Below, piece after piece: positions 8,076 to 50,654 of a DNA stretch of 64,000 nt (positions within the stretch are counted from its first letter, which is position 1; each line of letters begins with the position of its first letter). The notes below the pieces were generated by a model, which saw nothing but the letters and a program-made list of their open reading frames with translations, was not told the DNA's origin and made no database searches. The stretch lies in NCBI GenBank assembly GCA_052168235.1, contig JBQLZK010000020.1:33333-97332 (forward strand), in the 5' to 3' direction. Position numbers and translations under genes: made by a program. Source of the stretch: Thainema sp. GTDB lineage: Bacteria; Cyanobacteriota; Cyanobacteriia; Phormidesmidales; Phormidesmidaceae.

Positions 8076-8209
8076 CGGGGTCGTTTTATTGTCACCAGAA
8101 AAATATTTCAAAGCCGCAATTTTACGTGTCTGGTAGGGGCGAATGGCCATTCGCCCCTACGTAACGTCAACGGTTTCAGATATTTTTTGATAAACATGAA
8201 ACAACCCTG
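8076..8209. mobile_element. 134-bp MITE with imperfect terminal inverted repeats, central REP palindrome and 10-bp target-site duplication
   Basis: TIRs CGGGGTCGTTTTAT / ATGAAACAACCCTG; flanking direct repeat ACCTACGTGG at 8066-8075 and 8210-8219; partial second copy at 50555-50654. Confidence 0.8.
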
Positions 8210-8223
8210 ACCTACGTGGTCAC

Positions 8224-9681
8224 TTACAGCTTGGGTTTCCGCTTGTGCCAGTCGGTGGTTTGCTCGTAGGCGTGGGCCACCTCAAACAGCAAGCCTTCCC
8301 GCAGCACGTTGCCGATGAGCTGGAGACCAATGGGTTTACCCTGGTCGTCAAAGCCGCAGGGGATGCTGATCCCCGGCAGTCCAGCCAAGTTGACTGGAAT
8401 CGTCATCAAGTCTGACAGGTACATGCTGAGCGGATCATCCGTTTTTTCACCCGCTTTGAACGCAGTGGTCGGAGAGGTGGGGCAAACTAGGACATCGACT
8501 TTAGCGAAAGCTTTCTCAAAATCCTCTTTAATTAATGTCCGCACCTTCTGCGCTTTCAGGTAGTAAGCATCGTAGTAGCCCGCTGACAAGGCATAGGTGC
8601 CAATCATGATTCGGCGCTTGACTTCAGAACCAAATCCAGCCGCGCGGGTTTGCTGATACATGTCGAGCAGATTTTCCGGATTTTCGGCCCGATAGCCATA
8701 CTTGACACCGTCATAGCGAGCCAGGTTTGACGACGCTTCTGAGGGCGCAATGATGTAGTACGTAGGTAATCCGTAGCGGAATTTAGGACAGGAAATCACC
8801 TCGATTTCAGCGCCCAGTTCTTGTAAATGGGCCACTGCTTTTTCGACTGTCGCTTCCACGACGGGATCTAAGCCTTCGCCAAAGGTTTCCTTAATCACGC
8901 CGATGCGGATTTGGCCGCGCCGCCGCAGGTCGGGGGCCAGTGCTTTGGCGTAGTCAGGAATGTCAACTTTCAGGCTGGTGGAATCTTTGGGGTCATACCC
9001 TGCAATTTCCCGCAGCAAAATGGCGGCATCTTCCACCGTGCGGGCAAAGGGGCCAATCTGATCCAGCGACGAGGCGTAGGCAACCAGTCCGTAACGAGAG
9101 ACAAGGCCATAGGTCGGCTTCATGCCCACCACGCCGCAGAGAGCAGCCGGCTGACGAATGGAGCCACCCGTGTCTGATCCCAGCGCAACGACGCACTCCT
9201 CAGCGGCTACAGCGGCAGCGGAACCACCGGAGGAACCACCGGGGACGCATTCGAGATCCCAGGGGTTTGCCGTCACCTGGTAGGCCGAGTTTTCCGTCGA
9301 GCTGCCCATCGCGAACTCGTCCATATTGGTTTTGCCAATCATCACCGCGCCCGCATCCTTCAGTTTCTGCGTGACGGTGGACTCGTAGGGCGGCACGAAG
9401 TTTTGCAGCACTTTGGAGCCGCAGGTGGTGCGTACCCCTTTAGTACACATGTTGTCCTTAATGCCGATGGGAATCCCAGCCAGCGGGGAGATGTCTTCAC
9501 CTGCGGCAATTTTTTCGTCTACCCGACGGGCCTGTTCCAGGGCCTGATCGGCGGTGATGCTCAAAAAGCTCTTGACGTTGGGTTCTAGCGCTTGCGCATG
9601 CTCAAGGGCCGCCTCAGTGATTTCAACAGCGGAACGTTCTTTCGTAATGAGCTGATGGTGCAACTCGCGGATGAATCCCAT
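8224..9681 (-). CDS. gatA: Asp/Glu-tRNA amidotransferase subunit A
   Basis: [47 protein letters not shown] amidase signature. Confidence 0.97.
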
Positions 9682-10116
9682 GAAAACCTCTTGCCTGATG
9701 TCGATGTGCGATCGCGTTTACAAATCTCCAGTATACGGGGCGAATTCCCGATCAAAATCATCAAATCTGGTCAAAAATTTTGCAAAATTTTCTTAAGAAA
9801 TAGCTTTATAGTAGTCCTCAATGTTAATGATTGGCAGCATCTTTAGTCCGTGTTGCTGATTTAACTGACTGAGCTGATCGATACGATCAGGGTAAGAATG
9901 CCTCATGATCCGAGATCCAGTGATACAATCTCCAGACCCGTTTTGGAATTTGGGGTCGTTCCCAGCAGTCGTGCTTCTTGTTGTTGTCGTGCTTCTTGTT
10001 GATCTAACCTGAAGCTCACACCGCAAAAAATCACGATTTGAGGGCCACGAACGGAACTTTGATGCAGGATATGAGGAATTCGAGTTGACTGTTTCCTTTT
10101 GGTGTGAGGCTCGTGC

Positions 10117-11451
10117 ATGTACTGGTTTCTGCAACTGTCATTAATCGCGTTCAATGCGGCTGGCTTAACCCTGAGTTTTGCTTTCCTGCGAACGCCGATT
10201 GCCTTAGCTCCTGCCACTGAGATTGAGTCACCGGCTCTGCCTGATTTAGATCAAGCGGCATCCATTGAGGAACTATATACACTGCGGGATGAGCTGATTG
10301 CTCAAGTCAATGATGCCCATGCGCAGGATGAGGACGACAGCTCTTCATCCGGAAAAGTGTCCCATCAATTGCTGATGGAGCAGGCCATCCAAACTGCTCA
10401 AATTAAAATCCGCGTGGAAGAACGGGCTGAAACGCGCCTACATCAGGCGGGCCGACTTGCGCTTCAGGCGGTTGAAAAAGCGGGTGTTGAAGAACCAACT
10501 CTAGAGGATTTTCAGGCTGCCGAGGCACTTTGGAATGATGCGATCGCAAAGTTAGAGGCTATTCCCAACGAAGAAACCTTTGTCTCGCAACAGGCGCTGA
10601 AAAAGCTGACCGAATATCAAGGCCACCGAGACACAATTGCCTATCGGGTTGACGAGCAGCAGTCAGACTTCCTCAAAACAATTGCTGAAGAATTGGGTCG
10701 CCCCGATAGCATCCGTATTGCCGTTTGTGAGGTGGCGGAGAATCCAGAATGCCGCTACTGGAAGGGCAATGAACCGCCTGCCAGCCCAGCCAGCTTAATT
10801 AAAGTACCCGTCGCGGTGGCTCTGATGCAAAAAGTGACCACTGAGCAGACGGATCTGGAAAGCAAAATCATGGTCAGCCCCGGTAACTGGACAGAAGATC
10901 CGGACGGCTCCAAAATCTGGACGGGGCAGGAGCATTCGCTCAAAGAACTGCTGTACCGCATGATTGACCACAGCAGCAACATCGCCACTAATCAGCTTAT
11001 CGACTACGTTGGCTTTGACTACATTAATCAGGTGATGCAGGAGCGGGGCTACACGGGCACCAAAGTCGGCTATAAGCTGGTCGGCGAATCCACCTATCCC
11101 AGCAATTTGGGCAGTTTCCCAAACCAGATAACGGCCTCTGACCTGACTCACATGATGGTCGAAATTTACAACCAGGAAAATTCTGGTGATGATGTGCTGC
11201 TCGATGCCTTAGTCAGCCAGTACGACTGGGATTTCGGCTACAAGGCGCTGCAAAAGTCGCCCGGTAACTGGGCCGGAGAGAAAACGGGTCAAAACTCCAA
11301 GGTGATTGGTACAACCGTCGGCGTCAATATCGGCGGCGTAGGCGGCGATCGCTATATCATTACGTTTACGATTGACTACTCAGCCAACCAAAACACGCTG
11401 CGTCAGGGAATTCGGCAGGTCGTAGAGCATATTGCTGATAATGGTCTGTAA
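10117..11451 (+). CDS. Serine hydrolase (class A beta-lactamase/PBP-like) with N-terminal signal/anchor and helical domain
   Basis: PASLIK (SxxK), SSN (SxN), EKTG (KTG); hydrophobic N-terminus. Confidence 0.8.
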   Translation: MYWFLQLSLIAFNAAGLTLSFAFLRTPIALAPATEIESPALPDLDQAASIEELYTLRDELIAQVNDAHAQDEDDSSSSGKVSHQLLMEQAIQTAQIKIRVEERAETRLHQAGRLALQAVEKAGVEEPTLEDFQAAEALWNDAIAKLEAIPNEETFVSQQALKKLTEYQGHRDTIAYRVDEQQSDFLKTIAEELGRPDSIRIAVCEVAENPECRYWKGNEPPASPASLIKVPVAVALMQKVTTEQTDLESKIMVSPGNWTEDPDGSKIWTGQEHSLKELLYRMIDHSSNIATNQLIDYVGFDYINQVMQERGYTGTKVGYKLVGESTYPSNLGSFPNQITASDLTHMMVEIYNQENSGDDVLLDALVSQYDWDFGYKALQKSPGNWAGEKTGQNSKVIGTTVGVNIGGVGGDRYIITFTIDYSANQNTLRQGIRQVVEHIADNGL

Positions 11452-11487
11452 TGGGCATTGGCCCCGTAGATTCATTAAGCAACTATC

Positions 11488-12318
11488 ATGTCGAGTTCGA
11501 CTGCGATCGCACTTTCCACAGAAATTCAAGGGCAAGGTTTCCCGATTCTCTGTCTGCACGGACATCCGGGGCGCGGTTCCTCAATGTCGGTCTTCACTAG
11601 TCACCTCGCGCGGCGATTTAGGACAATTGCGCCGGATCTGCGTGGCTATGGCGATAGTCGGGTTGAGCGTCCGTTTCAGATGGCTGATCACTTACAGGAT
11701 CTTGAAGCCCTGCTGGAGCGGCAAACGATTGACCAGTGCCTCGTTTTGGGTTGGTCGCTGGGCGGCATTTTGGCGATGGAATTGGCACTCCAACGACCGG
11801 ATCTGGTACAGGGTTTAATCTTAGTCGCAACGGCAGCCTATCCCCGCAGCAGTCATCCGCCGATTTTCTGGCAGGACAATCTCTACACCGGACTGGCTGC
11901 ACTAATTAACCTCGTCTCTCCTGGCTGGCAGTGGAATATTGATGCCTTCGGTCAGCGGTCACTCTTCCGCTATTTGGTGCAGCAGCAAACGCCTTCAACC
12001 TACCGCTATCTGGCCAGTGAAGCCGTTCCAGCTTACCTACGCACGTCTAAGTGGGCGGAGCAAGCTCTGACTCAAGCCATGCGCGATCGCTATAATCGCC
12101 TCGCGGATTTGCACCAGATTCAAGTCCCCTGCCTGATGCTCTGCGGTGAACAGGATCGGCACATCACGGCTCAATCGAGTATCGAAACAGGCGAAGCGCT
12201 CCCAGACTGCAAGATTCACTGCTACCCCGACACCGCTCACCTTTTTCCCTGGGAAATTCCGCAGCAGGTTTTAGCTGATATCGATCAGTGGCTTACGATT
12301 TACCGGAATCCAACATAA
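11488..12318 (+). CDS. Alpha/beta fold hydrolase
   Basis: LCLHGHPG, APDLRGYG, GWSLGG nucleophile elbow, C-terminal His (TAHLFP). Confidence 0.9.
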   Translation: MSSSTAIALSTEIQGQGFPILCLHGHPGRGSSMSVFTSHLARRFRTIAPDLRGYGDSRVERPFQMADHLQDLEALLERQTIDQCLVLGWSLGGILAMELALQRPDLVQGLILVATAAYPRSSHPPIFWQDNLYTGLAALINLVSPGWQWNIDAFGQRSLFRYLVQQQTPSTYRYLASEAVPAYLRTSKWAEQALTQAMRDRYNRLADLHQIQVPCLMLCGEQDRHITAQSSIETGEALPDCKIHCYPDTAHLFPWEIPQQVLADIDQWLTIYRNPT

Positions 12319-38365: not shown

Positions 38366-39226
38366 ATGGCCGTTACAGCAGCAGCTTCCCGATTAGGCAT
38401 TTCTGCGTTTGATAGTGCCGCGCGGATTGAGCTTCGCCCGAATGCTACGGTTGAACAAAAAGAAGGCGTGATTCGGGCCGTATACCGTCAGGTGCTCGGC
38501 AATGACTATCTGATGAAATCGGAACGCCTGGTTAGTGCAGAATCGCTTCTGCGCGATGGCAGTATCACGGTACGAGAGTTTGTTCGTGCCGTGGCCAAAT
38601 CGGAGCTATACAAAACTAAGTTTTTCTATAACAGTTTTCAAACTCGCCTAATTGAGCTGAACTATAAGCATCTATTAGGACGGGCTCCTCATAGTGAGGC
38701 TGAGGTGATCTTCCACCTTGACCTGTATGAGACCCAAGGATATGACGCTGAAATCGATTCCTACATTGATTCAGAAGAGTATCGTAACGCATTTGGCGAA
38801 AATGTCGTGCCCTTCTATCGGGGATTTGAGTTCCACACTGGTGCTCAAACCACTGAGTTTAGCCGGATGTTCCGGCTCTATCGGGGATATGCGACGAGTT
38901 CCCGTGCGCAAGCAGAGCGCAATAATTCTCGCTTGGCTCGGGAATTAGCAAGCAACACTGCTTCCAGCATTGTTAACCCAACTCAAGGCGGTAGTGGTGC
39001 GTATTATCGTGCTACTAACGATGTACCGCCGGTTAAGGCTTTAGGTGGTTCCTATGGTCAGAGCGGTCGGGTATATCGGATTGAGGTTGCAGGTATTCGT
39101 CAGCCGGGTTATCCGGGCGTTCGTCGGAGCAGCACGGCTTTTATCGTGCCTTACGAGCAACTTTTGCCGAAGCTGCAGCAAGTTAAGCGGGCAGGCGGTA
39201 CGGTTGTAAGCGTTAATCCTGCTTAA
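38366..39226 (+). CDS. cpcC: Phycocyanin rod linker
   Basis: [14 protein letters not shown] linker domain, C-terminal CpcD-like domain. Confidence 0.95.
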
Positions 39227-39466
39227 TCATTTTTCGTCTATCGGCAGTGAGCTAGCAAGGGCTCGCTGCCGATTCATGCATCAAGAAATCCCTAAAACTT
39301 ATTTACTTCAGCGCAGCGTGGCTGATTCAGATTCACCGATTGGCTACGGTCGTATTTCCACGGCAGGTCTAAAGACTTGCTCTGAGTGCATTGGTGGGTA
39401 TACATCGGTGGGCAAAGTTGATGGTTGATAGTTGGCTGCGCCAAAGAGTACGCAAAGGAGAAATGT

Positions 39467-39748
39467 ATGTTTGGTCAAACTGCTGTAGGACGGACTGCAA
39501 ATACGTCGTCTGGTGCGCGGATGTTTCGCTATGAAGTGCAAGGCCTCCGTCAAAGTGATGAAACGGATCAAAATGCTTATCCGATTCGTCGCAGTGGCAG
39601 TATTTTCTTGACGGTTCCCTATAACCGGATGAATGAAGAGATGCAGCGCATTAATCGGATGGGCGGCACGATTGTGAATATCACGCCGTTGGCTGGTGCA
39701 GCCGCGGCTCCTGCTAAATCGTCTAAGTCTAAATCTTCTGACGAATAG
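39467..39748 (+). CDS. cpcD: Rod-capping linker
   Basis: MFGQTA, FRYEVQGL, VPYNRMNEEMQRINRMGGTIVNI; AAGGAG RBS. Confidence 0.95.
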   Translation: MFGQTAVGRTANTSSGARMFRYEVQGLRQSDETDQNAYPIRRSGSIFLTVPYNRMNEEMQRINRMGGTIVNITPLAGAAAAPAKSSKSKSSDE

Positions 39749-39783
39749 TTTTTTTGGTGACTCGTTAAGCATTGGATTTCTTC

Positions 39784-40626
39784 ATGTCGGATATGGAATC
39801 TTCAACTGATCGTCCTATGGATACGGCGGCTGAACAGCTGACGGTTGAACAAGCGATCGCAAATCTCCGACATGAGGATACGAGTCTCCGCTACTATGCA
39901 GCGTGGTGGCTGGGCCGATTTCGAGTTCAGGAGTCTGCGGCAGTTGAGGCGCTGATTCAGGCCTTGGGTGACAAAGACGATCGAACTGAATTGGGCGGCT
40001 ATCCCCTGCGGCGCAATGCCGCGCGGGCGTTGGGCAAGCTTGGGGATCAGCGGGCAGTAACTGGTCTGATTGAGTGCTTGAGTTGCGAAGATTTTTATGT
40101 GCGTGAGGCAGCGGCCCAGTCTTTGGGGGCATTGGGTGATCGGCAGGCTGTTGCGCCGCTAATGGCGATAATTGCTGATGGTTTAGCGGTTGCCGAGCGA
40201 GTTCCTGGACAGCCTCATCTGGTTCAGCCTTGTGAAGCGGTACTCGAAGCCCTGGGTGCTTTGAAGGCGACCGAAGCTGTTAATTTGCTGCGCCCATTTT
40301 TGGATGCGCCAACGGAACGGGTTCGCTATGCTGCAACTCGATCGATGTATCAGCTGACGGGTGAGGCTGAGTATGGTGAGCAATTGGTGGAGGCGCTGAA
40401 CGGTCGTGACTTGCAATTGCGGCGGGTAGCTCTATCTGATTTGGGGGCGGTAGGCTACATGCCTGCTGCCGATGCGATCGCACAGGCGGCAGTGGAAAGC
40501 AGCTTTAAGCTATTTTCGCTCAAAGGTTTGCTAGATGCCGATTTGCGGCGTAGTGGCTTTGTGCAGCAGCGCCAACTGTCAGATGATGCCCGTCGGGTGA
40601 TGTCGCTGATGGATGATTTGCTCTAG
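39784..40626 (+). CDS. cpcE: Phycocyanin alpha-84 lyase subunit E
   Basis: RYYAAWWLG, GGYPLRRNAARALG HEAT repeats. Confidence 0.95.
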   Translation: MSDMESSTDRPMDTAAEQLTVEQAIANLRHEDTSLRYYAAWWLGRFRVQESAAVEALIQALGDKDDRTELGGYPLRRNAARALGKLGDQRAVTGLIECLSCEDFYVREAAAQSLGALGDRQAVAPLMAIIADGLAVAERVPGQPHLVQPCEAVLEALGALKATEAVNLLRPFLDAPTERVRYAATRSMYQLTGEAEYGEQLVEALNGRDLQLRRVALSDLGAVGYMPAADAIAQAAVESSFKLFSLKGLLDADLRRSGFVQQRQLSDDARRVMSLMDDLL

Positions 40627-40805
40627 GTGCTATTGGTACCTGGTTTTGGAGCACAAGGTAACTGACTGGGTTGGTAAGTGATTAGTTGATGGGGGCGATG
40701 TTTAGAGTGCGATCGCACCTGTCACCTAATCAATCCAACACCAGACGAATGCAAACCCTCGCTTTTTCTCTCATTTCTGATTGCTGCAAACTGTTTGGCT
40801 AACGA

Positions 40806-41447
40806 ATGGATACTCAAACCCCTAATCAGCTGATTCGTGCGGTTGATGAGGCCGATTCTCCCGAACGGCTCATTGCGGCGGTGAAAGCGCTGGCAGATGC
40901 TCAGCTTGAATCGGGCGTGGAAACGCTGATTCGGGCACTCGGATTTAATAATCCGGGAGCGGCTGTCATGGCAATGAAGGGATTGATTCGCATGGGGCCA
41001 CCCGTTGTGCCGCATCTGCTGGCGCAGATTGATGACTACAACTATGGTGCTCGCTCCTATTCCATTCGTGCTTTAGCTGCGATCTCAGATCCACGCGCCT
41101 TGGATATTTTGCAAAAAGCGGCGGCTACCGACTTTGCACCCAGCGTTCGGCGGGCCGCCTCAAAGGGATTAGGCTTAATCACTTGGTCGAGCCTGCTGCC
41201 GGAGCAGATTGCCGATCGTCAGCAGCAGACGTGGGAAACGCTGCAGCAGGTGATTCAGGATGCTGATTGGTCAATCCGCTATGCAGCCCTATGCGGCATG
41301 ACTGGACTTGCGATCGCAGCTCATGCACCGCAGTTGAGAACTGCAATTTGCCAAGCTCTAGCGGAAACCACGGCTCAAGACAATGAGTTGGCGGTGCAGG
41401 CCCGTGCTCAGTTTGCCAAAGAGATGATCGAGTCGGCACAGGAATAA
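40806..41447 (+). CDS. cpcF: Phycocyanin alpha-84 lyase subunit F
   Basis: LGFNNPGAAV, YNYGAR, DFAPSVRRAA. Confidence 0.95.
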   Translation: MDTQTPNQLIRAVDEADSPERLIAAVKALADAQLESGVETLIRALGFNNPGAAVMAMKGLIRMGPPVVPHLLAQIDDYNYGARSYSIRALAAISDPRALDILQKAAATDFAPSVRRAASKGLGLITWSSLLPEQIADRQQQTWETLQQVIQDADWSIRYAALCGMTGLAIAAHAPQLRTAICQALAETTAQDNELAVQARAQFAKEMIESAQE

Positions 41448-41579
41448 CTGCTGAACCGCTGCTACTAAACCTAGCTCTCAACAGCAGAAGCTGCATGACA
41501 TCAGCTAAATCGCCTAGTTTTCCATCGGCCCAGTTTCTCCATCGATTGATTCGTTGATTTACAGGATTTTAAAGACTAT

Positions 41580-42419
41580 ATGGCTATTCCTCTACTTAAC
41601 AACGTACCGACAACCCAGAACCATCGGGTCTCGGGTTACGAAGTACCCGATGAAGATACTCCCTTGGTCTATCGTCTGACCGACGTGAGTTCTGAATCCG
41701 AGGTAAACGATCTGATCTGGGCGGCCTATCGGCAAATTTTCGGTGAGCATCTCATTCTAGAAAGCAATCGCCAAGTTGCACTGGAATCTCAGCTCCGCAA
41801 CCGCTCTATCTCCGTTCGCGAATTCATTCGCGGCTTAGGTAAGTCAGATGTGTATCGGGAACTGGTGAGCGACACCAACTCCAACTATCGCCTGGTCGAT
41901 GTAACGTTTAAGCGCTTTCTAGGTCGGGCAACCTACGGTCAAGATGAGCGCATTTCTTGGTCAATTGTGATCGCAACCCAGGGGCTGCACGGCTTCATTG
42001 ATGCCGTAGTAGACAGTGATGAATATCGGCAAAATTTTGGTAACAACATCCTGCCCTATCAGCGGCGGCGGTTTGATGGTCGTCCCTTCAACCTTGTGAC
42101 TCCCCGCTACAGCGACTACTGGCGCAACAAAGAGCTCCAGAATGCGGGTCGTTCCTACTACCAGGCGCGTCAATATCGGTCTGGGGATCTGGATCGAGCC
42201 GTGGTTCGTCAAGCCATTCCGGCTAACTTCTTGGCGATGGCTAGCCGTGTGCTACCCCAAGAGCGTAACTATCAGCGCACGATTGCCAGTGTCACATCCC
42301 AGATTAAGACCCTCAGTATTCCGGATACCAGCCATACCAATCAGCAAGGACAGCGCCGTATTCAGCCGACCCGCACATCGCTGCCCTACGACTATATTCC
42401 AGGTGTGGAAAAAGTTTAA
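41580..42419 (+). CDS. cpcG1: Rod-core linker CpcG1
   Basis: MAIPLL...TQNHRV, PBS linker domain, [10 protein letters not shown]; number assigned by gene order. Confidence 0.9.
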   Translation: MAIPLLNNVPTTQNHRVSGYEVPDEDTPLVYRLTDVSSESEVNDLIWAAYRQIFGEHLILESNRQVALESQLRNRSISVREFIRGLGKSDVYRELVSDTNSNYRLVDVTFKRFLGRATYGQDERISWSIVIATQGLHGFIDAVVDSDEYRQNFGNNILPYQRRRFDGRPFNLVTPRYSDYWRNKELQNAGRSYYQARQYRSGDLDRAVVRQAIPANFLAMASRVLPQERNYQRTIASVTSQIKTLSIPDTSHTNQQGQRRIQPTRTSLPYDYIPGVEKV

Positions 42420-42487
42420 GTTTGCTAGCTCGATGCAGTCATCGAGCTGTATCTCGATGTTTTAAGGAAGATTAGAGGAATATCTGT

Positions 42488-43231
42488 ATGACACTGCCCC
42501 TTTTAGCCTATAGCCAAACAACCCAGAACCAGCGGGTTGATGGCTACGAAGTGCCCAACGAGGATAGTCCCTGGATCTATCGCTTAGAAGACTGCACGGA
42601 TAACTCCGATGTAGAAGCGTTAATCTGGACGGCGTATCGTCAAGTGTTCAGCGAACATGTCATTCTTAAGAGCAGCCGCCTGCCGGATCTAGAGTCTCAG
42701 CTTAAGAATAATGCGATTACGGTGCGCGACTTTGTCCGTGGCTTAGCGAAGTCGGATGTTTTTCATCGGCTGGTGGTAGAGACAAACTCCAACTATCGAG
42801 TGGTTGAGATTTGCCTGAAGCGTCTTTTGGGTCGTGCGCCCTATGGCAACGACGAGAAAATTTCCTGGTCGATTGTGATTGCCACCCAGGGTCTGGACGG
42901 TTTCATAGATGCGCTGTTGGATAGCGACGAATATCTCAGCAACTTTGGTGAGAACACCGTTCCCTATCAGCGGCGGCGGTTCAACGAGCGCCCATTTAAT
43001 TTGGTCACGCCTCGCTATAGCGACTACTGGCGCGATCGCTTAGAAGCGTCTCGCTACAAGTGGGGCGACGTGCGCAACTTCCTCGACATGGCCAAGGATG
43101 TTTATGTGAAGCCTGTTACTTATCAAACGGTTCGCACTGACAACATCAAGATTCCTGATACCACACGGGAAACCAAACCCGAAGGTGTTTTGGCATCGAT
43201 TAGCTCCTCTGCGAGTTTCCCAGTGCGCTAA
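42488..43231 (+). CDS. cpcG2: Rod-core linker CpcG2
   Basis: MTLPLL...TQNQRV, linker domain; number assigned by gene order. Confidence 0.9.
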   Translation: MTLPLLAYSQTTQNQRVDGYEVPNEDSPWIYRLEDCTDNSDVEALIWTAYRQVFSEHVILKSSRLPDLESQLKNNAITVRDFVRGLAKSDVFHRLVVETNSNYRVVEICLKRLLGRAPYGNDEKISWSIVIATQGLDGFIDALLDSDEYLSNFGENTVPYQRRRFNERPFNLVTPRYSDYWRDRLEASRYKWGDVRNFLDMAKDVYVKPVTYQTVRTDNIKIPDTTRETKPEGVLASISSSASFPVR

Positions 43232-43444
43232 TCACACGCTTAATGTTGGGCAGTTTTCAAAAGACAGCCATGTTTCGTTCTGTGATTTTAATCACAGAAC
43301 GAAACATGACTTACTACCCTTACTTAGCACTGCCAAACTAGCGAATTTGGCCCAAATCGTGGCCCAGTTTAAGTACAGCCAACGTAGATTGATCTCATAA
43401 ATTGACAGCTCCGGAATTTTATATTCAAACGAAGGAGAGTCAGT

Positions 43445-44200
43445 ATGACTATACCCGTATTGGAGTACAAGCCTGCTACTCAAAATCAGCGCGTTGACAG
43501 TTTTGGCACTGTCGATACTCATGGGGATGTCCCTGTTGTTTATCGACTCGATGATGCGAAGCATGTAGATGAGGTGGATGCCCTGATTCGGGCTGCCTAT
43601 CGGCAGGTCTTCAATGAGCAGGAAATGCTGCATTTTAATCGTCAAATTGCGTTAGAAACTCAGCTCCGCAATCGCGCGATTTCAGTGCGCGATTTCATTC
43701 GGGGATTGGCAAAATCTGAGCGGTTTTATGAGCTGGTCGTTGCGCCCAATAATAACTATCGCTTAGTAGAAATATGCTGTAAGCGTCTGCTGGGGCGGGA
43801 ACCGTATGGGCGGGATGAGGAAATTGCCTGGTCAATTCAAATCGCATCGTTGGGCTGGGCAGCTTTTGTGGATTGGCTACTGGATAGCGAGGAATATATC
43901 CGCACCTTTGGCAAAGATACGGTGCCGTATCAGCGGAAGCGATTTGCTGAGCGCCCGTTTAGCTTTACACCACGCTATGGGGCTGACTACCGAGATCGCA
44001 TGCCAAAACCAGATCCGCGTCGATTACAATCGCTGAATCGTGCTGGCTTTGAGCCGTTTGGCCAATTTGAACCTTATGATTGGCAAACGATTTTGCAGCG
44101 TACCAATGGGTCTCGGTTGGCGGCTGTTTTGGTATCGGTGGTTGGCATCATCACCGGATTGCTGGTGCTAGCCTCGGTAACAGGCAGTTTGGGCGGCTAA
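43445..44200 (+). CDS. cpcL: Rod-membrane linker CpcL (CpcG3)
   Basis: CpcG-type linker domain plus C-terminal hydrophobic tail [21 protein letters not shown]. Confidence 0.88.
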
Positions 44201-44390
44201 TTTGTCTAATTTGAACGTGCGATCGCACCAAAGACACGCGATAATAAGCCCAAAGCTATTTTGAACACTAGTTTTTATCCGTTGCTGTTTCAGATAATCA
44301 GAATTAGAGACATCCACAACAGTCACTAGTGTTCCTCTTTTTTACCTGAGGTTGTTAACTCATCGTTCATTTATAAGGGAGAAAAATCGC

Positions 44391-45146
44391 ATGGCATTGC
44401 CACTGCTTCAATATCGTCCAACGACTCAAAACCAAAGGGTAGAGAGCTTCGGCAAGGCGGATCTGAACGAAGATACCCCCTATATCTATCGGCTCGAAGA
44501 TATGCCGAATAATGATCGCATTGAAGAAGTGATTTGGGCATCCTATCGCCAAGTCTTCAGCGAGCATGAAACCCTGAAGTTCAACCGTCAAATCACCCTA
44601 GAGTCACAGCTCCGGAATCGTGCAGTCTCTGTGCGGGACTTCATCCGTGGACTCGCCAAGTCTGAGCGTTTCTACGAAACCGTTGTTGCCGTGAACGACA
44701 ACTACCGCTTAGTTGACGTATGCCTGCGCCGCTTCTTGGGTCGTGCAGCTTACAACCAAGATGAGAAAATCGCTTGGTCGATCAAAATTGGGACGCTGGG
44801 CTTCCACGGTTTTGTTGATGCTCTGCTCGATAGCGACGAGTACACCGAAGCGTTTGGTGAGAATACTGTTCCTTATCAGCGCAAGCGGATGGAAGGCCGT
44901 CCCTTCAATCTCGTCACTCCTCGTTATGGTGAAGACTACCGCGAGATTGCAGGTACCACCAAGACCGATTGGCGCTTTGTTATCGAGAAGTTCTACTCCG
45001 CTAAGTACCAAGAGCGGATGATGAGCGAAGGCGATCCGCGCAAGTTCAAGGCGATGGCATCTTCCATCGGCGCACGCGGTAACTATGGTTCTCGTGTATC
45101 GGCCTATCAGATTGATTATCTGAACAAGGTGCCCAAGCGGCGCTAA
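44391..45146 (+). CDS. cpcG4: Rod-core linker CpcG4
   Basis: MALPLLQY...TQNQRV; EGDPRKF; C-terminal IDYLNKVP. Confidence 0.9.
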
Positions 45147-46200: not shown

Positions 46201-48384
46201 CTATTCGTCCCAAAAGTCGTCGAGATTAAAGCTATTGGCGGCAGCTTGAATTTCCCGAAAATAATCTGTTTGGGTAATTTGCGCTACGTCCCGTTCCCGT
46301 TTCTGATGGTCGATTTCGATTTGCAATTCTTCCAGTTGGCGCTTGAGGTCACGCTCTTTGCGTTTGCGTTCGGTGATGTCCTGCACGATGCCTTCATAGT
46401 AGAGCAACGTCCCGCTATCGTCATAGACGGCGCGGGCATTTTCTGATAGCCAAATGATGACTCCATCGGCACAGTAGGCTTGATATTCAAACCCTTCAAC
46501 CTGTCCGGCAGTTTCGATCTGCTGGCGAAACTGCTGATATGCGATCGCATCGACGTAGATCTGTTTGCTGATGTCAGTGATCTGCTCCACCATGTCGAGC
46601 GGTGAGGAATAGCCGTGAATACGGGCCATTGCTGGGTTAACGCTGATATAGCGGTGAGCGGGACTGGACTGAAAAATCCCTTCTAGTGCATTTTCGTAAA
46701 TGCTGCGATATTTTTCCTCGGCAATCTGTAGCGCCTGCTCAACTTCCTTTCGCTCAGTAATGTTGCGCACAATGATGAGCACTTCGCTCTCGCACAGGGC
46801 AACCATGCGAACTTCTTCAATCCGGCGGCCTTGAGCGGCTTGAAGCCGCTGTTCATAAACTTGAATTTTTCCGGTGGTGAGCGCTTGCTGAACATAATGC
46901 ATCCACTCATTGGCCAGTTCCGTCGGTAGACATTCATGCACAGAGCTGCCGACTTTGAAATGATTAGCATTATGGATTTGAGTGCGGCCTTCGCCTTGAA
47001 TATCGAGATACAGACCGTCCTGGCGGACTCGAAGCAACAGGTCAGGCATTGCCTGCACCAGAGCCCGATTGGTCGCTTCACTGTCCTGCAAATTGGTAAA
47101 CGATCGCTGGAGCTGCTGTGCCATGCTGTTAAATGAATTGGCGAGAGCTTCTAGCTCATCCACACCTTTGACCGTGACCGTTTGATCCAGGTTGCCATTG
47201 GCAATCTGCCGAGACGCTTGGTCAAGCTTGAGAATTGGTCTTGCCAGCCAGCGGGAGGTGTGTAGCCCTAACCAGATGGCAACCAAAAGTGCGATCGCAC
47301 ATAGAACAATCGTAATGCGGGTGTTTTGGTGGATCTGCGCCATGAAGTCGGCTTCGGGCACCACCACCACAATCAGCCAGTCCAGCCCCCGACCGTCCCT
47401 GAAGGGTAAGACCTGCAAGAACTGGCGTTTGCCATCAACAGTAAACTCTAACTGGTGCGATCGCTGAATATTGTTGAGATTCCCAAACCGCTGATTGAGA
47501 TACTCAGCGGCACCTTGAACTAAGGGATTTTCGCTTTCCACAGCCTCGCGCCGCCGAGCGGCATCGTCATGACCCGCAATCAAGAGATCTTCTGCGGTAG
47601 ACGTGGAGACTAGCGTTCCCGAACGTTCGACAATAAACGTTTTGCCCGATTCACCGACCTTCAGCGTCCGCAAAAAGCGGCTCATCTCTTCCGGCAGAAT
47701 AAAGTCCGTCGCACAGACGCCGATGAAGCCATTGCCAAATTCTTCATAGATGGGCAGACTGGCCGTAATTGTCGGCAGTTGCGTGTCGAAGTCCAGATAG
47801 ATATCGCTCCAGGTTGGCCCACCTGCGGCTTTGGCGGCTGTGTACCACGGGCGCACTCGCGGATCAAAGGGACGGTCGCCTGTGCTGAGCAGATAGGTGC
47901 GATCGCCCGTAATATTCATCCCGTAGTAGTTGGCGATATGATTGGTCGAATCGTTGTAAATCACCAACTGGAGCGATTGATCCGCCTCGTTGCGCCCCAC
48001 ACCCAGAAAGGAACCGTCAATGTCCGTCGCGCAGTAAATCAGATTGGTATAGGAAAAAATCTTGGCTTGCTGCCAAAACTGATGTTCTCCGGTGGCGCGA
48101 CTGATATCAATGTCGCCCTTGAAGACAGAGTTGCCGTTGATCCGATTAATCGAATGGGGGATTTCAATATAGGACTGGAGCTGCTGCTTAATTCGCTCTA
48201 CGATTTCTGTTCGTAACTGCGAAGACAGATTGTAAACCGCTTGCTGACCATTGCGAAATGAGATGTAGCCGACTAGCCCAACCGCCGCCACGATTTGCAG
48301 CACAAAGGGGACGATTAATGCTCGCTGTAGCGGAACTGTTCGTCCCGTTTGCCAAGGCGGCAACCAATCCAGCAAGTGGCGCAT
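46201..48384 (-). CDS. Membrane sensor: Cache-HAMP-PAS-PAS with short C-terminal coiled coil, no catalytic output domain
   Basis: Two TM segments, FDPRVRPWY Cache motif, HAMP (ELEALANSFNSMA), PAS units ending RNITERK and QDITERK. Confidence 0.85.
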   Translation of the reverse strand: MRHLLDWLPPWQTGRTVPLQRALIVPFVLQIVAAVGLVGYISFRNGQQAVYNLSSQLRTEIVERIKQQLQSYIEIPHSINRINGNSVFKGDIDISRATGEHQFWQQAKIFSYTNLIYCATDIDGSFLGVGRNEADQSLQLVIYNDSTNHIANYYGMNITGDRTYLLSTGDRPFDPRVRPWYTAAKAAGGPTWSDIYLDFDTQLPTITASLPIYEEFGNGFIGVCATDFILPEEMSRFLRTLKVGESGKTFIVERSGTLVSTSTAEDLLIAGHDDAARRREAVESENPLVQGAAEYLNQRFGNLNNIQRSHQLEFTVDGKRQFLQVLPFRDGRGLDWLIVVVVPEADFMAQIHQNTRITIVLCAIALLVAIWLGLHTSRWLARPILKLDQASRQIANGNLDQTVTVKGVDELEALANSFNSMAQQLQRSFTNLQDSEATNRALVQAMPDLLLRVRQDGLYLDIQGEGRTQIHNANHFKVGSSVHECLPTELANEWMHYVQQALTTGKIQVYEQRLQAAQGRRIEEVRMVALCESEVLIIVRNITERKEVEQALQIAEEKYRSIYENALEGIFQSSPAHRYISVNPAMARIHGYSSPLDMVEQITDISKQIYVDAIAYQQFRQQIETAGQVEGFEYQAYCADGVIIWLSENARAVYDDSGTLLYYEGIVQDITERKRKERDLKRQLEELQIEIDHQKRERDVAQITQTDYFREIQAAANSFNLDDFWDE

Positions 48385-48467
48385 TCTCAGGTCTTTTAGT
48401 CTCCTCTACCCTGATCAATTCCTATAATACGTCCAGTTGAAAATCCATCAGGCTTTTTATGAAGCCC

Positions 48468-49499
48468 TTACCACTCATCTGCCGTTGCACTGCCAGCAAT
48501 CCAGTCGTGAATATTGCGCTCAGCGCCCGCCACGTTGAACAGGTGGAGACCAAAATCTCGCGACAGGTCTTCACAGACGCGAATGCCTCGAACGCTATTG
48601 CCTTTGGCATCCAGCGGTGGCGAAAATGTACCGATGCCAAGCGTGTTCGGCACGACGGCAGTGATGCCGCCGCCCACGCCGCTCTTGGCGGGCATGCCGA
48701 CTCTGTAGACCCACTCGCCGGAATAATCGTACATGCCGCAGGTGAGCATGACGCTGATCACATCCTGCACGTAGCGCTCATCCAGCGCCCGCACGCCTGT
48801 GACCGGATTGATGCCTTTATTGGCCAGGGTGGCGGCCATCATCGCTAAATCTTTGGCATTGACCAGAATGGAACACTGCTGGAAGTAGAGATCCAGCGTT
48901 TCTTCAATTCGATCCGTCACCATGCCAAAGTTCAACATCAAATATGCGATCGCACGATTGCGAAAGCCAGTGGATTTTTCCGACAAAAAAACCGGCACGT
49001 TCACATCCAGTTCCCGTCCGGTATAGCGGCCAAACATGTCTAATAAGCGCTTGAGCCGTTCGGTGGCATTGTTGCCTTTGACTAAATCGGCAGTTGCGAT
49101 CGCACCTGCGTTGACCATTGGGTTATAGGGGCGATTGGTTTCCTCATCCAGCACAATCGCGTTAAAGGCTTCACCAGAGGGTTCGACGCTGACTTTGCTG
49201 TTGACGTATTCTCGCCCATGATCCTCTAGCGCTAAACCGTAGACAAATGCTTTTGAAATAGATTGAATCGTGAACAGTTGGTCGCAATCCCCCACGTCGA
49301 ACACTTGACCATCTGTACTCACTACGCAAATGCCAAACCAGGTAGGGTCTGCCGTCGCCAGTTCAGGGATATAATCGGCAACTGCTCCGTCCGTCAGTGC
49401 CTGATACTGCTCATGCAAATCGTTCAGGTATTGCCGAAAGGGAGACGTTGCAGCCTGAATAGAACTGGCTAAAGACTGCATACCGGGTTTTTGAGTCAT
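48468..49499 (-). CDS. glsA: Glutaminase A
   Basis: [53 protein letters not shown]. Confidence 0.95.
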
Positions 49500-49656
49500 G
49501 ATGTCCTCGGTCGTTCGCGTTCGCGTTTGGGCTGGACTGCTAAGGATTATCGAAACCGCAGGATAGCCGTCTGGGCCGTCCCGATCAGGCGTGATGCCTG
49601 ATCTACCGTTGGATTACTCGATGACTCCAGTAACCCGTTCTGAATCAATTCGCCAA

Positions 49657-50415
49657 TCAATTCGCCATGATTTGAGCTGCCACTTTTTGGAACTCTTGGC
49701 TAATTGGATGATCGCGATATTTTGTGCAAAACACGCCTTCACTGGCGAGCTGCACCACATCTTCCGACAGCGGAAAAATGCCCGCGACGGGAACGTCGTA
49801 GGTTTCTTCTGCCTTTTGCTTGAGCGCTTCAAAGTTGAGTTTGCTCAAGGCCTTGTTAATCGCCAGCAGCATCTTGCGCACCTTGAGCTGCCTCGCTACA
49901 TCGATGGTGACTGCTGTGCCCTGATAGTCCTGCTTGTCGGGCCGCAGAATTAAAATCAACACGTGGGAGATGGCAATCGACAGAAACGTTTCCTTCGAGA
50001 GTCCCGGATGGGTGTCAATAAATAGATAATCGAGTTCTAAGCCTTTCACCAGCTTACGAAAGCCGTCATTCAGAAGCTTGACATCGTAGCCTTCCTGCAA
50101 GATTTTAGCGATATCGTCGGCTTTGATGCTGGAGGGTACCAGAAAGAGCTGACCCGCGCCCGTTAAACCAATGTTGGAGCTGACATCGTAGGCTGCTTCC
50201 TCAATCGTGCTTTCGCCCCACAGAAAGCTGTTGAGCGTATTCTGAATTTGCTCTGGCTCTAAACAAAACAGGTTATGGATACCGGGTGACGGCACATCTG
50301 TATCTACCACGCCCACCCGATGTCCCTGCATGGCAATGGTGGCGGCTAAGTTGGCCGTAAAGTTCGATTTACCCGTACCACCACGATAGGAATGAATAGA
50401 GACAACTCTGGGCAT
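49657..50415 (-). CDS. MinD/ParA-family ATPase (atypical, RGGTGKS)
   Basis: SIHSYRGGTGKS deviant Walker A, VDTD, IDTHPG, INK. Confidence 0.88.
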   Translation of the reverse strand: MPRVVSIHSYRGGTGKSNFTANLAATIAMQGHRVGVVDTDVPSPGIHNLFCLEPEQIQNTLNSFLWGESTIEEAAYDVSSNIGLTGAGQLFLVPSSIKADDIAKILQEGYDVKLLNDGFRKLVKGLELDYLFIDTHPGLSKETFLSIAISHVLILILRPDKQDYQGTAVTIDVARQLKVRKMLLAINKALSKLNFEALKQKAEETYDVPVAGIFPLSEDVVQLASEGVFCTKYRDHPISQEFQKVAAQIMAN

Positions 50416-50476: not shown

Positions 50477-50506
50477 TTGTGTAAAACGATTTTGTGTAAA
50501 ACGATT
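50477..50506. promoter_or_regulatory. 15-bp perfect tandem repeat upstream of the MinD-like gene
   Basis: TTGTGTAAAACGATT x2; regulatory role is inferred. Confidence 0.4.
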
Positions 50507-50554: not shown

Positions 50555-50654
50555 AAAGCCGCAATTTTACGTGGCTGGTAGGGGCGAATGGCCATTCGCC
50601 CCTACGTAACATCAATGGTTTCAGATATTCTTTGGCAAACATGAAACGACCCTG
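50555..50654. mobile_element. Partial second copy of the REP-containing MITE at 8076-8209
   Basis: 100-bp colinear near-identical match to 8110-8209, including GTAGGGGCGAATGGCCATTCGCCCCTAC and the right TIR. Confidence 0.85.

Follow-up and report, generated by a model that had tools for sequence, protein, structure and literature searches.

A sensor tail in output position, an Arg-variant MinD-like ATPase and a glutaminase: a candidate signalling module from Thainema sp.

How does a membrane sensor that has no recognizable output domain hand on its signal? The question is raised by a stretch of 64,000 nucleotides from the cyanobacterium Thainema sp. (contig JBQLZK010000020.1, positions 33,333 to 97,332; hereafter the window), in which such a sensor is encoded in a row with a MinD/ParA-like ATPase and a glutaminase. 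Gene order and fusions link the C-terminal tail of the sensor to the ATPase, and the ATPase is in turn linked to the glutaminase. Our reading, to which we give a probability of about 0.62, is that the tail would be a detachable transmitter that docks on the ATPase (R-ATPase, our name for its clade), and that the ATPase would act on a variable effector, here the glutaminase.

A first-pass annotation of the locus, made from the sequence alone, had described three co-oriented genes with gaps of 157 base pairs (bp) between ATPase and glutaminase and of 83 bp between glutaminase and sensor, and the open reading frames (ORFs) and their coordinates agree with it. The trio and the parts of it that matter here are as follows.

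50415-49657, minus strand: Arg-variant MinD/ParA-like ATPase (R-ATPase), 252 residues (Pfam ParA/NUBPL, AAA_31, CbiA)
50365-50391, minus strand: deviant Walker A motif SYRGGTGKS, residues 9-17, with Arg for the MinD signature Lys (read from the sequence)
49999-50022, minus strand: Walker B region FIDTHPGL, followed by K141, which is specific to the chromosomal class (class comparison)
49499-48468, minus strand: glutaminase A, 343 residues (PF04960, TIGR03814)
48471-48533, minus strand: C-terminal extension of the glutaminase, 21 residues (323-343), beyond the solved catalytic domain
48384-46201, minus strand: dCache_1-HAMP-PAS-PAS membrane sensor, 727 residues, without a catalytic output domain (Pfam)
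46204-46368, minus strand: C-terminal tail of the sensor, 55 residues (673-727), the candidate module for transmission or docking; matched at cut-off by neither Pfam nor NCBIfam
46258-46326, minus strand: tail core LQIEID...ITQTDYF, LQIEIDHQKRERDVAQITQTDYF, residues 687-709 (conserved columns)
46204-46230, minus strand: acidic-aromatic tail end FNLDDFWDE (class-I signature NLDEFW; alignment of tails)

What stands in the place of an output domain

Pfam resolves the sensor into dCache_1 (residues 152-341), HAMP (377-426), PAS_4 (445-547) and PAS_9 (568-672), with a second hydrophobic stretch at residues 357-374, and leaves residues 673-727 unmatched. Only dCache_1, HAMP and PAS are found at E ≤ 0.01, and there is no HisKA, HATPase_c, GGDEF/EAL, MCPsignal or cyclase domain among the matches; NCBIfam kinase and phosphodiesterase models cover the input part only, far below their cut-offs, and the N-terminus reaches 64 bits against the SiaA model, also below cut-off. 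The first-pass annotation had seen in this protein the input architecture of the neighbouring diguanylate cyclase without its output, and the comparison bears this out. The two proteins are colinear at 29% identity (residues 17-689 versus 9-723) up to where the last PAS domain ends; from there the sensor continues into the tail and the cyclase into GGDEF, so that the tail occupies the place of the GGDEF domain.

Could the tail simply be what a truncated kinase or cyclase leaves behind? A word-indexed search of 5.8 billion sequences returns 29 clusters that match the tail at E ≤ 1.8e-7, the window protein included, all of the same sensor architecture and all without an output domain. Their named sources are all cyanobacterial (Arthrospira, Calothrix, Leptolyngbya, Kaiparowitsia, Egbenema), and their tail is kept to the final residue, as ...QLEELQIEIDHxKRxxEVAxxTxSxYFQEVQxExxxVNLDEFWS. 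An exhaustive phmmer search of 1.84 billion sequences with a 60-residue tail returns 279 representatives at E ≤ 1e-3. Such numbers at such E-values put the tail far beyond chance. In 145 of the 149 newly listed representatives no more than 15 residues follow the tail module. Among the 35 of these 149 that were scanned with Pfam, the tail sits behind PAS, REC-PAS, Amt-PAS, dCache/sCache/CHASE4-HAMP, GAF, REC-GAF, HisKA-REC-GAF or nSTAND1, four show no domain, and none has a kinase ATPase, GGDEF, cyclase or methyl-accepting chemotaxis protein domain. One tail protein, P0189, joins an ammonium transporter, a PAS domain and the tail. Judged from this distribution of sequences, the tail is a conserved and widespread module in what would be the output position, and not a truncation.

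The consensus of 27 diverse tails (alignment A1) is RExxLxRQxxELRIEIDxxKRxRQVAEITETDYFxELQxxAxxLR, in which E, I, D, V, I, T, Y and F are invariant or nearly so; the Tyr is kept in at least 90% of tails and replaced by F or H in some (TDFF, SEMF, NEHF). We find no relative of the tail in the PDB, by sequence (best E 0.048) or by profile (best E 0.33); the best score in the ESM Atlas is 0.78, and Pfam and NCBIfam report nothing at gathering level on the tails. Below threshold, 18 of the 27 match the HAUS2 model (best E 4e-4), which we read as a coiled-coil artefact, and 7 of the 27 match HalX (best E 0.077), a domain found at the C-terminus of response regulators in haloarchaea. The HalX likeness may reflect remote kinship, the closest relatives of the ATPase being archaeal MinD proteins, or it may be another coiled-coil artefact.

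Ties between tail, ATPase and glutaminase

The ATPase matches Pfam ParA/NUBPL with 64 bits and PF01656 (CobQ/CobB/MinD/ParA) with 46 bits, ParA, AAA_31 and CbiA all scoring above their cut-offs, and its best solved relative is the archaeal MinD 1HYQ (E = 8e-18, 67.8 bits). It has the intact P-loop (GGTGKS), switch I (VDTD) and Walker B (DTHPG) of the SIMIBI superfamily. It lacks the MinD signature xKGGxGK[ST], and the MinD models stay below their cut-offs (TIGR01969, 85.9 versus 201.75; TIGR01968, 44.1 versus 212.9). Among at least 7999 homologues, the 120 closest share 79-97% identity with it, and their source names are all cyanobacterial, from many orders and including one of the Gloeobacterales.

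The Arg of RGGTGKS, on which the first-pass annotation had remarked, is a family trait, and we use xHS[YF]RGGTGKS as the family signature. This residue, R11, is conserved in at least 95% of 121 class-I (chromosomal) proteins and in at least 90% of 56 other family members, and it is present in all plasmid paralogues, those of Deinococcus, Rhizobium and Streptomyces included. Conserved in both groups (the 121 versus the 56 paralogues and fusion domains) are H8, S9, R11, GGTGKS, N18, D38-T39-D40, S43-P44-G45, H47 and D134-T135-H136-P137-G138. Variants of the signature occur as SYQGGTGKT in the dCache-tail-ATPase fusions P0322 and P0323, and as SYRAGTGKS in the ATPase-glutaminase fusion P0299. The absence of an evident C-terminal helix, noted at the same time as the Arg, also holds: the alignment with MinD of P. 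horikoshii spans residues 1-248 of 252, with no extra segment at the C-terminus that would be a membrane-targeting helix.

The first line of evidence for a link is gene order. A genome scan with the full-length sensor alignment, which is biased to PAS-containing relatives, gave 79 loci, and a hidden Markov model (HMM) of the tail identifies 28 tail-bearing ORFs in 25 of them. Using tblastn with the window proteins, we find ATPase and glutaminase in 16 loci each, in every case among the 25 tail loci; the 54 tail-less loci have no ATPase and no glutaminase gene. In 14 loci besides the window (L001, L002, L003, L006, L010, L011, L013, L014, L015, L016, L020, L021, L025, L064), ATPase, glutaminase and tail gene lie on one strand, usually with gaps of -4 to about 90 bp, and the glutaminase, 72-82% identical to ours, adjoins the ATPase. 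Halomicronema, Leptolyngbya, Arthrospira, Limnospira, Limnoraphis, Microseira, Scytonematopsis, Rivularia and Nostoc are among the sources. The third gene encodes 405-765 residues and its N-terminal domains vary; the last PAS domain and the tail are always kept. As for the remaining loci, the ATPase gene comes right after that of the sensor in L007; in L024 the gene of a PAS-tail protein shares 4 bp with that of an ATPase paralogue, 56% identical, and in L008 and L017 the glutaminase lies at the contig edge (L004 is not judgeable, and L002 contains Ns). Nine tail-less loci carry full-length dCache homologues, none with ATPase or glutaminase nearby, and six of these nine end in cyclase-like sequence, which we take to be that of a class III cyclase.

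Some of these loci are odd in themselves. L064, assigned to a metagenome-assembled genome (MAG) of Acidovorax caeni, has the full trio, its proteins 72-74% identical to those of cyanobacteria; a mis-binned contig or a transfer is likely. In L003 (Arthrospira platensis, 8396-8740) only the last 81 or so residues of the ATPase are left, beside an ORF on the opposite strand, and in L021 (a Rivularia MAG, 8140-8649 and 9977-11798) ATPase and sensor are each interrupted; these lesions reflect either a decaying module or faulty assembly.

The second line starts from the ATPase. For the broad non-cyanobacterial tails, genomic context is seen only on plasmids, and a tblastn search of 72,556 plasmids with the ATPase gives 14 records, nine at 52-61% identity (Kovacikia, five Nostoc, Pseudanabaena, Deinococcus, Rhizobium jaguaris) and five from Streptomyces at 35%, all 14 carrying S[FY]RGGTGKS. 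By the tail HMM, a tail gene lies within 12 kb of the ATPase in seven of the nine closer loci, which come from three phyla (Cyanobacteria, Deinococcus, Rhizobium). In four it is immediately upstream of the ATPase: in Kovacikia, in Nostoc UHCC 0926, in N. punctiforme pNPUN02, whose annotation calls it a 'cache and HAMP domain-containing protein', and in Rhizobium jaguaris, where the tail gene (145 residues) and the ATPase ORF have 4 bp in common. Conversely, all four plasmid records matched by the window tail are among the 14 ATPase records. In the 16.7 kb examined around the Streptomyces gene there is no tail.

The third line is natural fusions. Among 50 ATPase homologues longer than 441 residues (E ≤ 1e-20), 39 have the tail 13-78 residues ahead of the ATPase Walker A, and the tail in turn follows cyclic nucleotide (cNMP)-binding, HisKA-REC, dCache(-HAMP) or HTH-PAS domains. 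A quick tree with the Shimodaira-Hasegawa-like approximate likelihood ratio test separates the fusion clades (support of 95% for cNMP, 100% for HisKA-REC and 99% for dCache), and gives 100% to the chromosomal ATPase clade of 17 rows that includes the window protein. On the other side of the ATPase, P0299 is a fusion of ATPase (residues 2-249) and glutaminase (312-595), and P0340 one of ATPase, protein kinase, FHA and GON domains. With the tail before the ATPase and effector-like domains after it, the polarity reads input, tail, ATPase, output. The first-pass annotation had the tail recurring near such ATPases, and gene order, plasmid loci and fusions bear this out; the three-way company with the glutaminase is seen in the 14 loci and in P0299.

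The glutaminase itself scores 415 bits against PF04960 (cut-off 27) and 366 against TIGR03814 (cut-off 255), and it does keep, as first read, the Ser-x-x-Lys motif, as QSISK at residues 79-83 (window 49251-49265), which together make it a glutaminase A of predicted activity. Its canonical catalytic domain (residues 20-322) aligns with solved glutaminases, of which the bacterial chains 1U60, 2PBY and 1MKI stop 0-2 residues past the aligned core and have no extension. In the 15 locus glutaminases found by script, the C-terminal extension is conserved as ...PERNLQEWIAGGDGINDW. The extension (...RNLQEWIAGG...DDW) resembles the end of the sensor tail (...VNLDEFWS), and such NLDEFW-type ends belong to tails beside a chromosomal ATPase-glutaminase pair, basic ends to tails beside paralogous ATPases, where there is no glutaminase. 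Extension and tail end may compete as ligands for a single site, or they may be alike by chance in a short motif.

Proposed route and competing explanations

The window holds both halves of the pair, a C-terminal LxIEID...ITxTDYF module and an xHS[YF]RGGTGKS ATPase, with genes 1.3 kb apart. From what has been seen we infer direct binding of tail and ATPase, control of dimerization, and the glutaminase as a regulated target. The transmitter would be the last 45-55 residues or so, with a coiled-coil lead-in, LxIEID, KR, V-x-x-I-T-x-T/S-D-Y-F and a further helix, and it would bind the dedicated Arg-variant ATPase. Since the sensor would be dimeric through HAMP and PAS, two parallel tails would hold two ATPase protomers. 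A ligand at the periplasmic dCache domain, or signals at the cytoplasmic PAS domains, would then alter the ATP-dependent dimerization or turnover of the ATPase, and the ATPase would relay this to the variable effector encoded alongside. Here the effector would most likely be glutaminase A, possibly reached through its 21-residue extension, in which case an external signal would tune the hydrolysis of glutamine. Sensing of glutamine or nitrogen status by the module, also put forward in the first-pass annotation, we can only infer.

A fold prediction bears on this docking. In the AlphaFold2 model of the fusion P0301 (46-row alignment; predicted template modelling score 0.60), the ATPase domain has a predicted local distance difference test score (pLDDT) of 85-95 and the tail core DEKKRQRHVAEITETDYFKGLAERANRLRQ (residues 201-230) one of 85-90, compared with 58-67 for the preceding helix and 44 for the linker after it. 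In the tail of the model, LxIxID is non-helical and is followed by a helix, a kink and a helix. The best PDB folds are MinD, FlhG, Soj and FleN (1HYQ at a TM-score of 0.89, target-normalized), with Wzc among the matches. The confidence values of this model fit a tail that packs on the ATPase. A charge pattern points the same way: all 13 chromosomal (class-I) pairs, with tail ends of net charge -3 to -6, have K as residue 141 of the ATPase, where 18 paralogous or fused (class-II) pairs, with a net charge of -2 to +6, have E.

Several observations weigh against the docking relay. A high pLDDT in a helix is weak evidence of packing, and the charge count, which omits 27 of the 39 fusions and L086 (their core was not found by the motif used), separates just two clades, about one evolutionary event, and is suggestive only. 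The loci were picked by sensor similarity, so that the 14 syntenic ones are largely orthologues and not independent events. Six tail loci (L005, L012, L018, L019, L026, L042) are without an ATPase within the available sequence, and two of the nine plasmid loci (L085, L087) are without a tail gene within 10 kb (on the L087 plasmid, a CHASE2-tail gene lies 21 kb off); together they indicate that the pairing is not obligatorily local. The fusion P0299, a single cluster from one contig of 9.7 kb, may be an artefact of misassembly or of a frameshift. The paralogous ATPases adjoin differing genes, such as DUF7005 with a cNMP-binding protein, CHAT, AAA_35 and GlgX clusters, and with neighbours so varied the glutaminase is one of many possible targets. 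Finally, the gaps of 157 and 83 bp in the window exceed those at the other loci, and operon status is a prediction.

Among other explanations, the one that survives best, although we hold it to be unlikely, is positioning of the ParA/MinD type: gradients of the ATPase on membrane or nucleoid would position clusters of the sensor, the tail would be a stimulating peptide of the MinE/ParB/TlpT type, and the glutaminase would be a passenger. The fold is that of the family, the closest structures being MinD, FlhG and Soj. Short partner peptides that stimulate ParA/MinD ATPases are established in the superfamily (review PMC11407121), and the conserved K-R pair of the tail could be the stimulating element. 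Set against this are the missing C-terminal membrane-targeting helix, the replacement of the signature Lys throughout the family, neighbours that are enzymes and signalling proteins and not cargo structures, and the 39 of 50 long forms in which the ATPase is covalently tethered to a sensor, unlike a freely diffusing gradient-former. The proposal of the first-pass annotation that the module serves spatial organization finds no support, on much the same grounds: fusions in cis, no membrane helix and variable enzyme or effector neighbours point to a regulatory switch.

The known systems can be placed accordingly. MinD-MinE and ParA-ParB or McdA-McdB share with our pair a MinD-fold deviant-Walker-A ATPase and a short conserved partner peptide; here, Arg replaces Lys, there is no membrane helix, and the peptide is the C-terminus of a sensor and often fused in cis. 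No MinC, MinE or ParB family protein is found among the window ORFs scanned (at least 80 residues), in agreement with the earlier reading that no minC, minE or parB gene is nearby. A likeness as a MinD-like regulatory switch is offered by FlhG/FleN (with FliM, FlrA, FleQ), two proteins that are also among the closest folds; their nucleotide state decides which partner is bound, for regulation and not for cargo positioning (PMC11407121). They differ from the R-ATPase in signature, inputs and likely targets, and there are no flagellar genes here.

An amidoligase is a poorer explanation still, and we regard it as improbable. ATPase and glutaminase would be the two subunits of a glutamine-dependent enzyme, the former activating a carboxylate as CobQ/CobB or CTP synthase do, the latter supplying ammonia, and the sensor would only regulate. 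The 46-bit PF01656 match, the tight and conserved adjacency of two unusually conserved genes, and the fusion P0299 speak for it. However, the nearest relatives of the ATPase are MinD and FlhG and not dethiobiotin synthetase or CobQ types, and the same ATPase family occurs without glutaminase, beside unrelated effectors. The glutamine-hydrolysing partner is a serine-lysine enzyme of the PF04960 type, with no class-I triad glutamine amidotransferase family as in CobQ/CobB; to our knowledge, PF04960-type glutaminases do not serve as amidotransferase subunits.

Equally improbable, in our estimate, is a tail that is a generic coiled-coil or dimerization end left by gene fission, with adjacency by shared descent and signalling of some other kind, for instance as a heterodimer with the cyclase paralogue. 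That sensor and cyclase are colinear paralogues, that the synteny sample is mostly orthologues and that HAUS2 coiled-coil matches occur in 18 of 27 tails, weak and sub-threshold as they are, would all agree with it. But the most conserved part is the one that is not coiled, from ITxTDYF onward to the last residue, tail and ATPase stay linked in distantly related paralogous pairs of three phyla and in several fusion clades, and the cyclase neighbour is not conserved in other loci.

The CapA-CapB system, in which a membrane protein, through its C-terminal tail, activates a distinct P-loop protein related to MinD, has the same general plan; here the relation is distant (28 bits), the tails are unrelated, and there are neither a tyrosine cluster nor polysaccharide genes. 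That the ATPase is a kinase of this bacterial tyrosine kinase kind, activated by the tail or phosphorylating its Tyr, we hold to be very improbable, since the chimera 4JLV of a CapA tail and CapB among the PDB matches (E 9e-6), Wzc among the fold matches and the Tyr of most tails are met by F or H at that position in others, by an ATPase without a C-terminal tyrosine cluster, and by its far greater closeness to MinD (67.8 versus 28.4 bits).

Returning to the docking of the tail on the R-ATPase, a wider version of it is tempting, and we put it forward tentatively, at somewhat less than even odds. There may be a widespread, so far unnamed one-step route, in which a C-terminal plug of about 45 residues, shared by dozens of sensor architectures (dCache/CHASE-HAMP, PAS, GAF, REC, cNMP, ammonium transporter, STAND NTPase), docks on an R-ATPase hub whose ATP-dependent dimer state switches enzymes and effectors, glutaminase in most cyanobacteria, with the tail end (NLDEFW) and the glutaminase extension (NLQEWI...DDW) competing for one hub site.

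Surroundings of the trio and wider meaning

The window is an ordinary segment of a cyanobacterial chromosome, with cpcBA at 37-45 kb, together with phycobilisome linkers and lyase-like HEAT proteins, and with housekeeping genes in its other parts. After cpcBA, five phycobilisome-linker-like genes (286, 279, 247, 251 and 264 residues; window 38366-45146, plus strand) stand in a row, with two HEAT-repeat lyase-like genes between the first of them and the other four. The minus-strand row of our interest runs from a double ArsA/Get3-like ATPase through a GGDEF cyclase to the MinD-like ATPase, glutaminase A and the sensor. Upstream of the trio we list:

55324-53384, minus strand: double ArsA/Get3-type ATPase, 646 residues, with two ATPase halves, 20 bp upstream of the cyclase gene
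53363-50670, minus strand: dCache-HAMP-PAS-PAS-GGDEF diguanylate cyclase, directly upstream of the trio (Pfam)
50578-50605, no strand: 28-nucleotide perfect palindrome between the cyclase stop and the ATPase gene
50477-50506, no strand: tandem direct repeat of 15 nucleotides, 2 x TTGTGTAAAACGATT on the plus strand, 62-91 bp upstream of the ATPase start codon

With the 646-residue protein the gene row has a second ATPase of the SIMIBI class, of which tblastn finds no homologue in any of the fetched loci; the diguanylate cyclase, too, is missing from this position in the other loci that were examined. Repeat and palindrome both lie inside the 254-bp spacer between cyclase and ATPase. The repeat may be a regulatory site or operator, and the palindrome, which the terminator scan did not call, may mark a transcript boundary; both are candidates. 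Promoter and terminator scans of the operon report nothing above chance, and the NtcA-type site GTAN8TAC occurs 8 times in the window (4.6 expected) and not upstream of the ATPase.

Elsewhere the neighbours of R-ATPase paralogues form rows of their own. One row, of R-ATPase paralogue, DUF7005 (about 400 residues) and a protein with two cNMP domains, recurs beside Nif11/NHLP precursor and export genes of ribosomally synthesized and post-translationally modified peptides. A second runs DJ-1, AGE epimerase, STAS, GlgX, STAS, (anti-sigma kinase), SpoIIE phosphatase, R-ATPase on Streptomyces and Deinococcus plasmids, and appears on the Nostoc NIES-3756 plasmid as a shorter GlgX row with one STAS and no phosphatase (PP2C). 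Its STAS-GlgX-STAS-PP2C part resembles the icfG cluster of Synechocystis, whose composition is given in PMC12329169; the plasmid rows add an R-ATPase at the end. In a third, SiaA-like dCache-HAMP-PP2C, SiaB-like HATPase and SiaC/STAS-like genes precede the tail protein, and the R-ATPase follows directly in L024 and L082. In L016 and L020 the ATPase-glutaminase pair is upstream of the Sia-like genes, and in L016 the partner-switch genes separate it from the tail gene. The likeness is to SiaABCD of Pseudomonas aeruginosa, whose diguanylate cyclase SiaD is replaced by tail protein and R-ATPase in L016, L020, L024 and the Rhizobium locus L082; the window itself is without SiaB and SiaC.

R-ATPase/DUF7005/cNMP clusters: L080, 10001-13334; L084, 10001-13101; L088, 9983-13239; L086, 9801-14756
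GlgX rows: L089, 954-8768; L081, 2200-10750; L087, 4611-10762
Sia-like clusters: L016, 8314-11233; L020, 8660-13066; L024, 194-5756; L082, 6206-10771

In the full-text literature searched, subscription journals lying outside it, we found no published description of the tail, of the Arg-variant clade, or of its pairing with sensors or glutaminase. What would the module mean? Output-less sensors are common in genome censuses and their signalling usually goes unexplained, and for one large group of them the docking of tail on R-ATPase offers a testable answer. It would assign a role to a P-loop protein that is among the most conserved of those still uncharacterized in cyanobacteria (about 80% identity across several orders, Gloeobacterales included), and link it to nitrogen metabolism through the glutaminase; if the glutaminase is indeed the effector, glutamine breakdown would be a signal-controlled step. 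As a compact pair of peptide and ATPase, it may be reusable as a synthetic signalling part. And it would extend the MinD/ParA family from positioning to plain signal relay.

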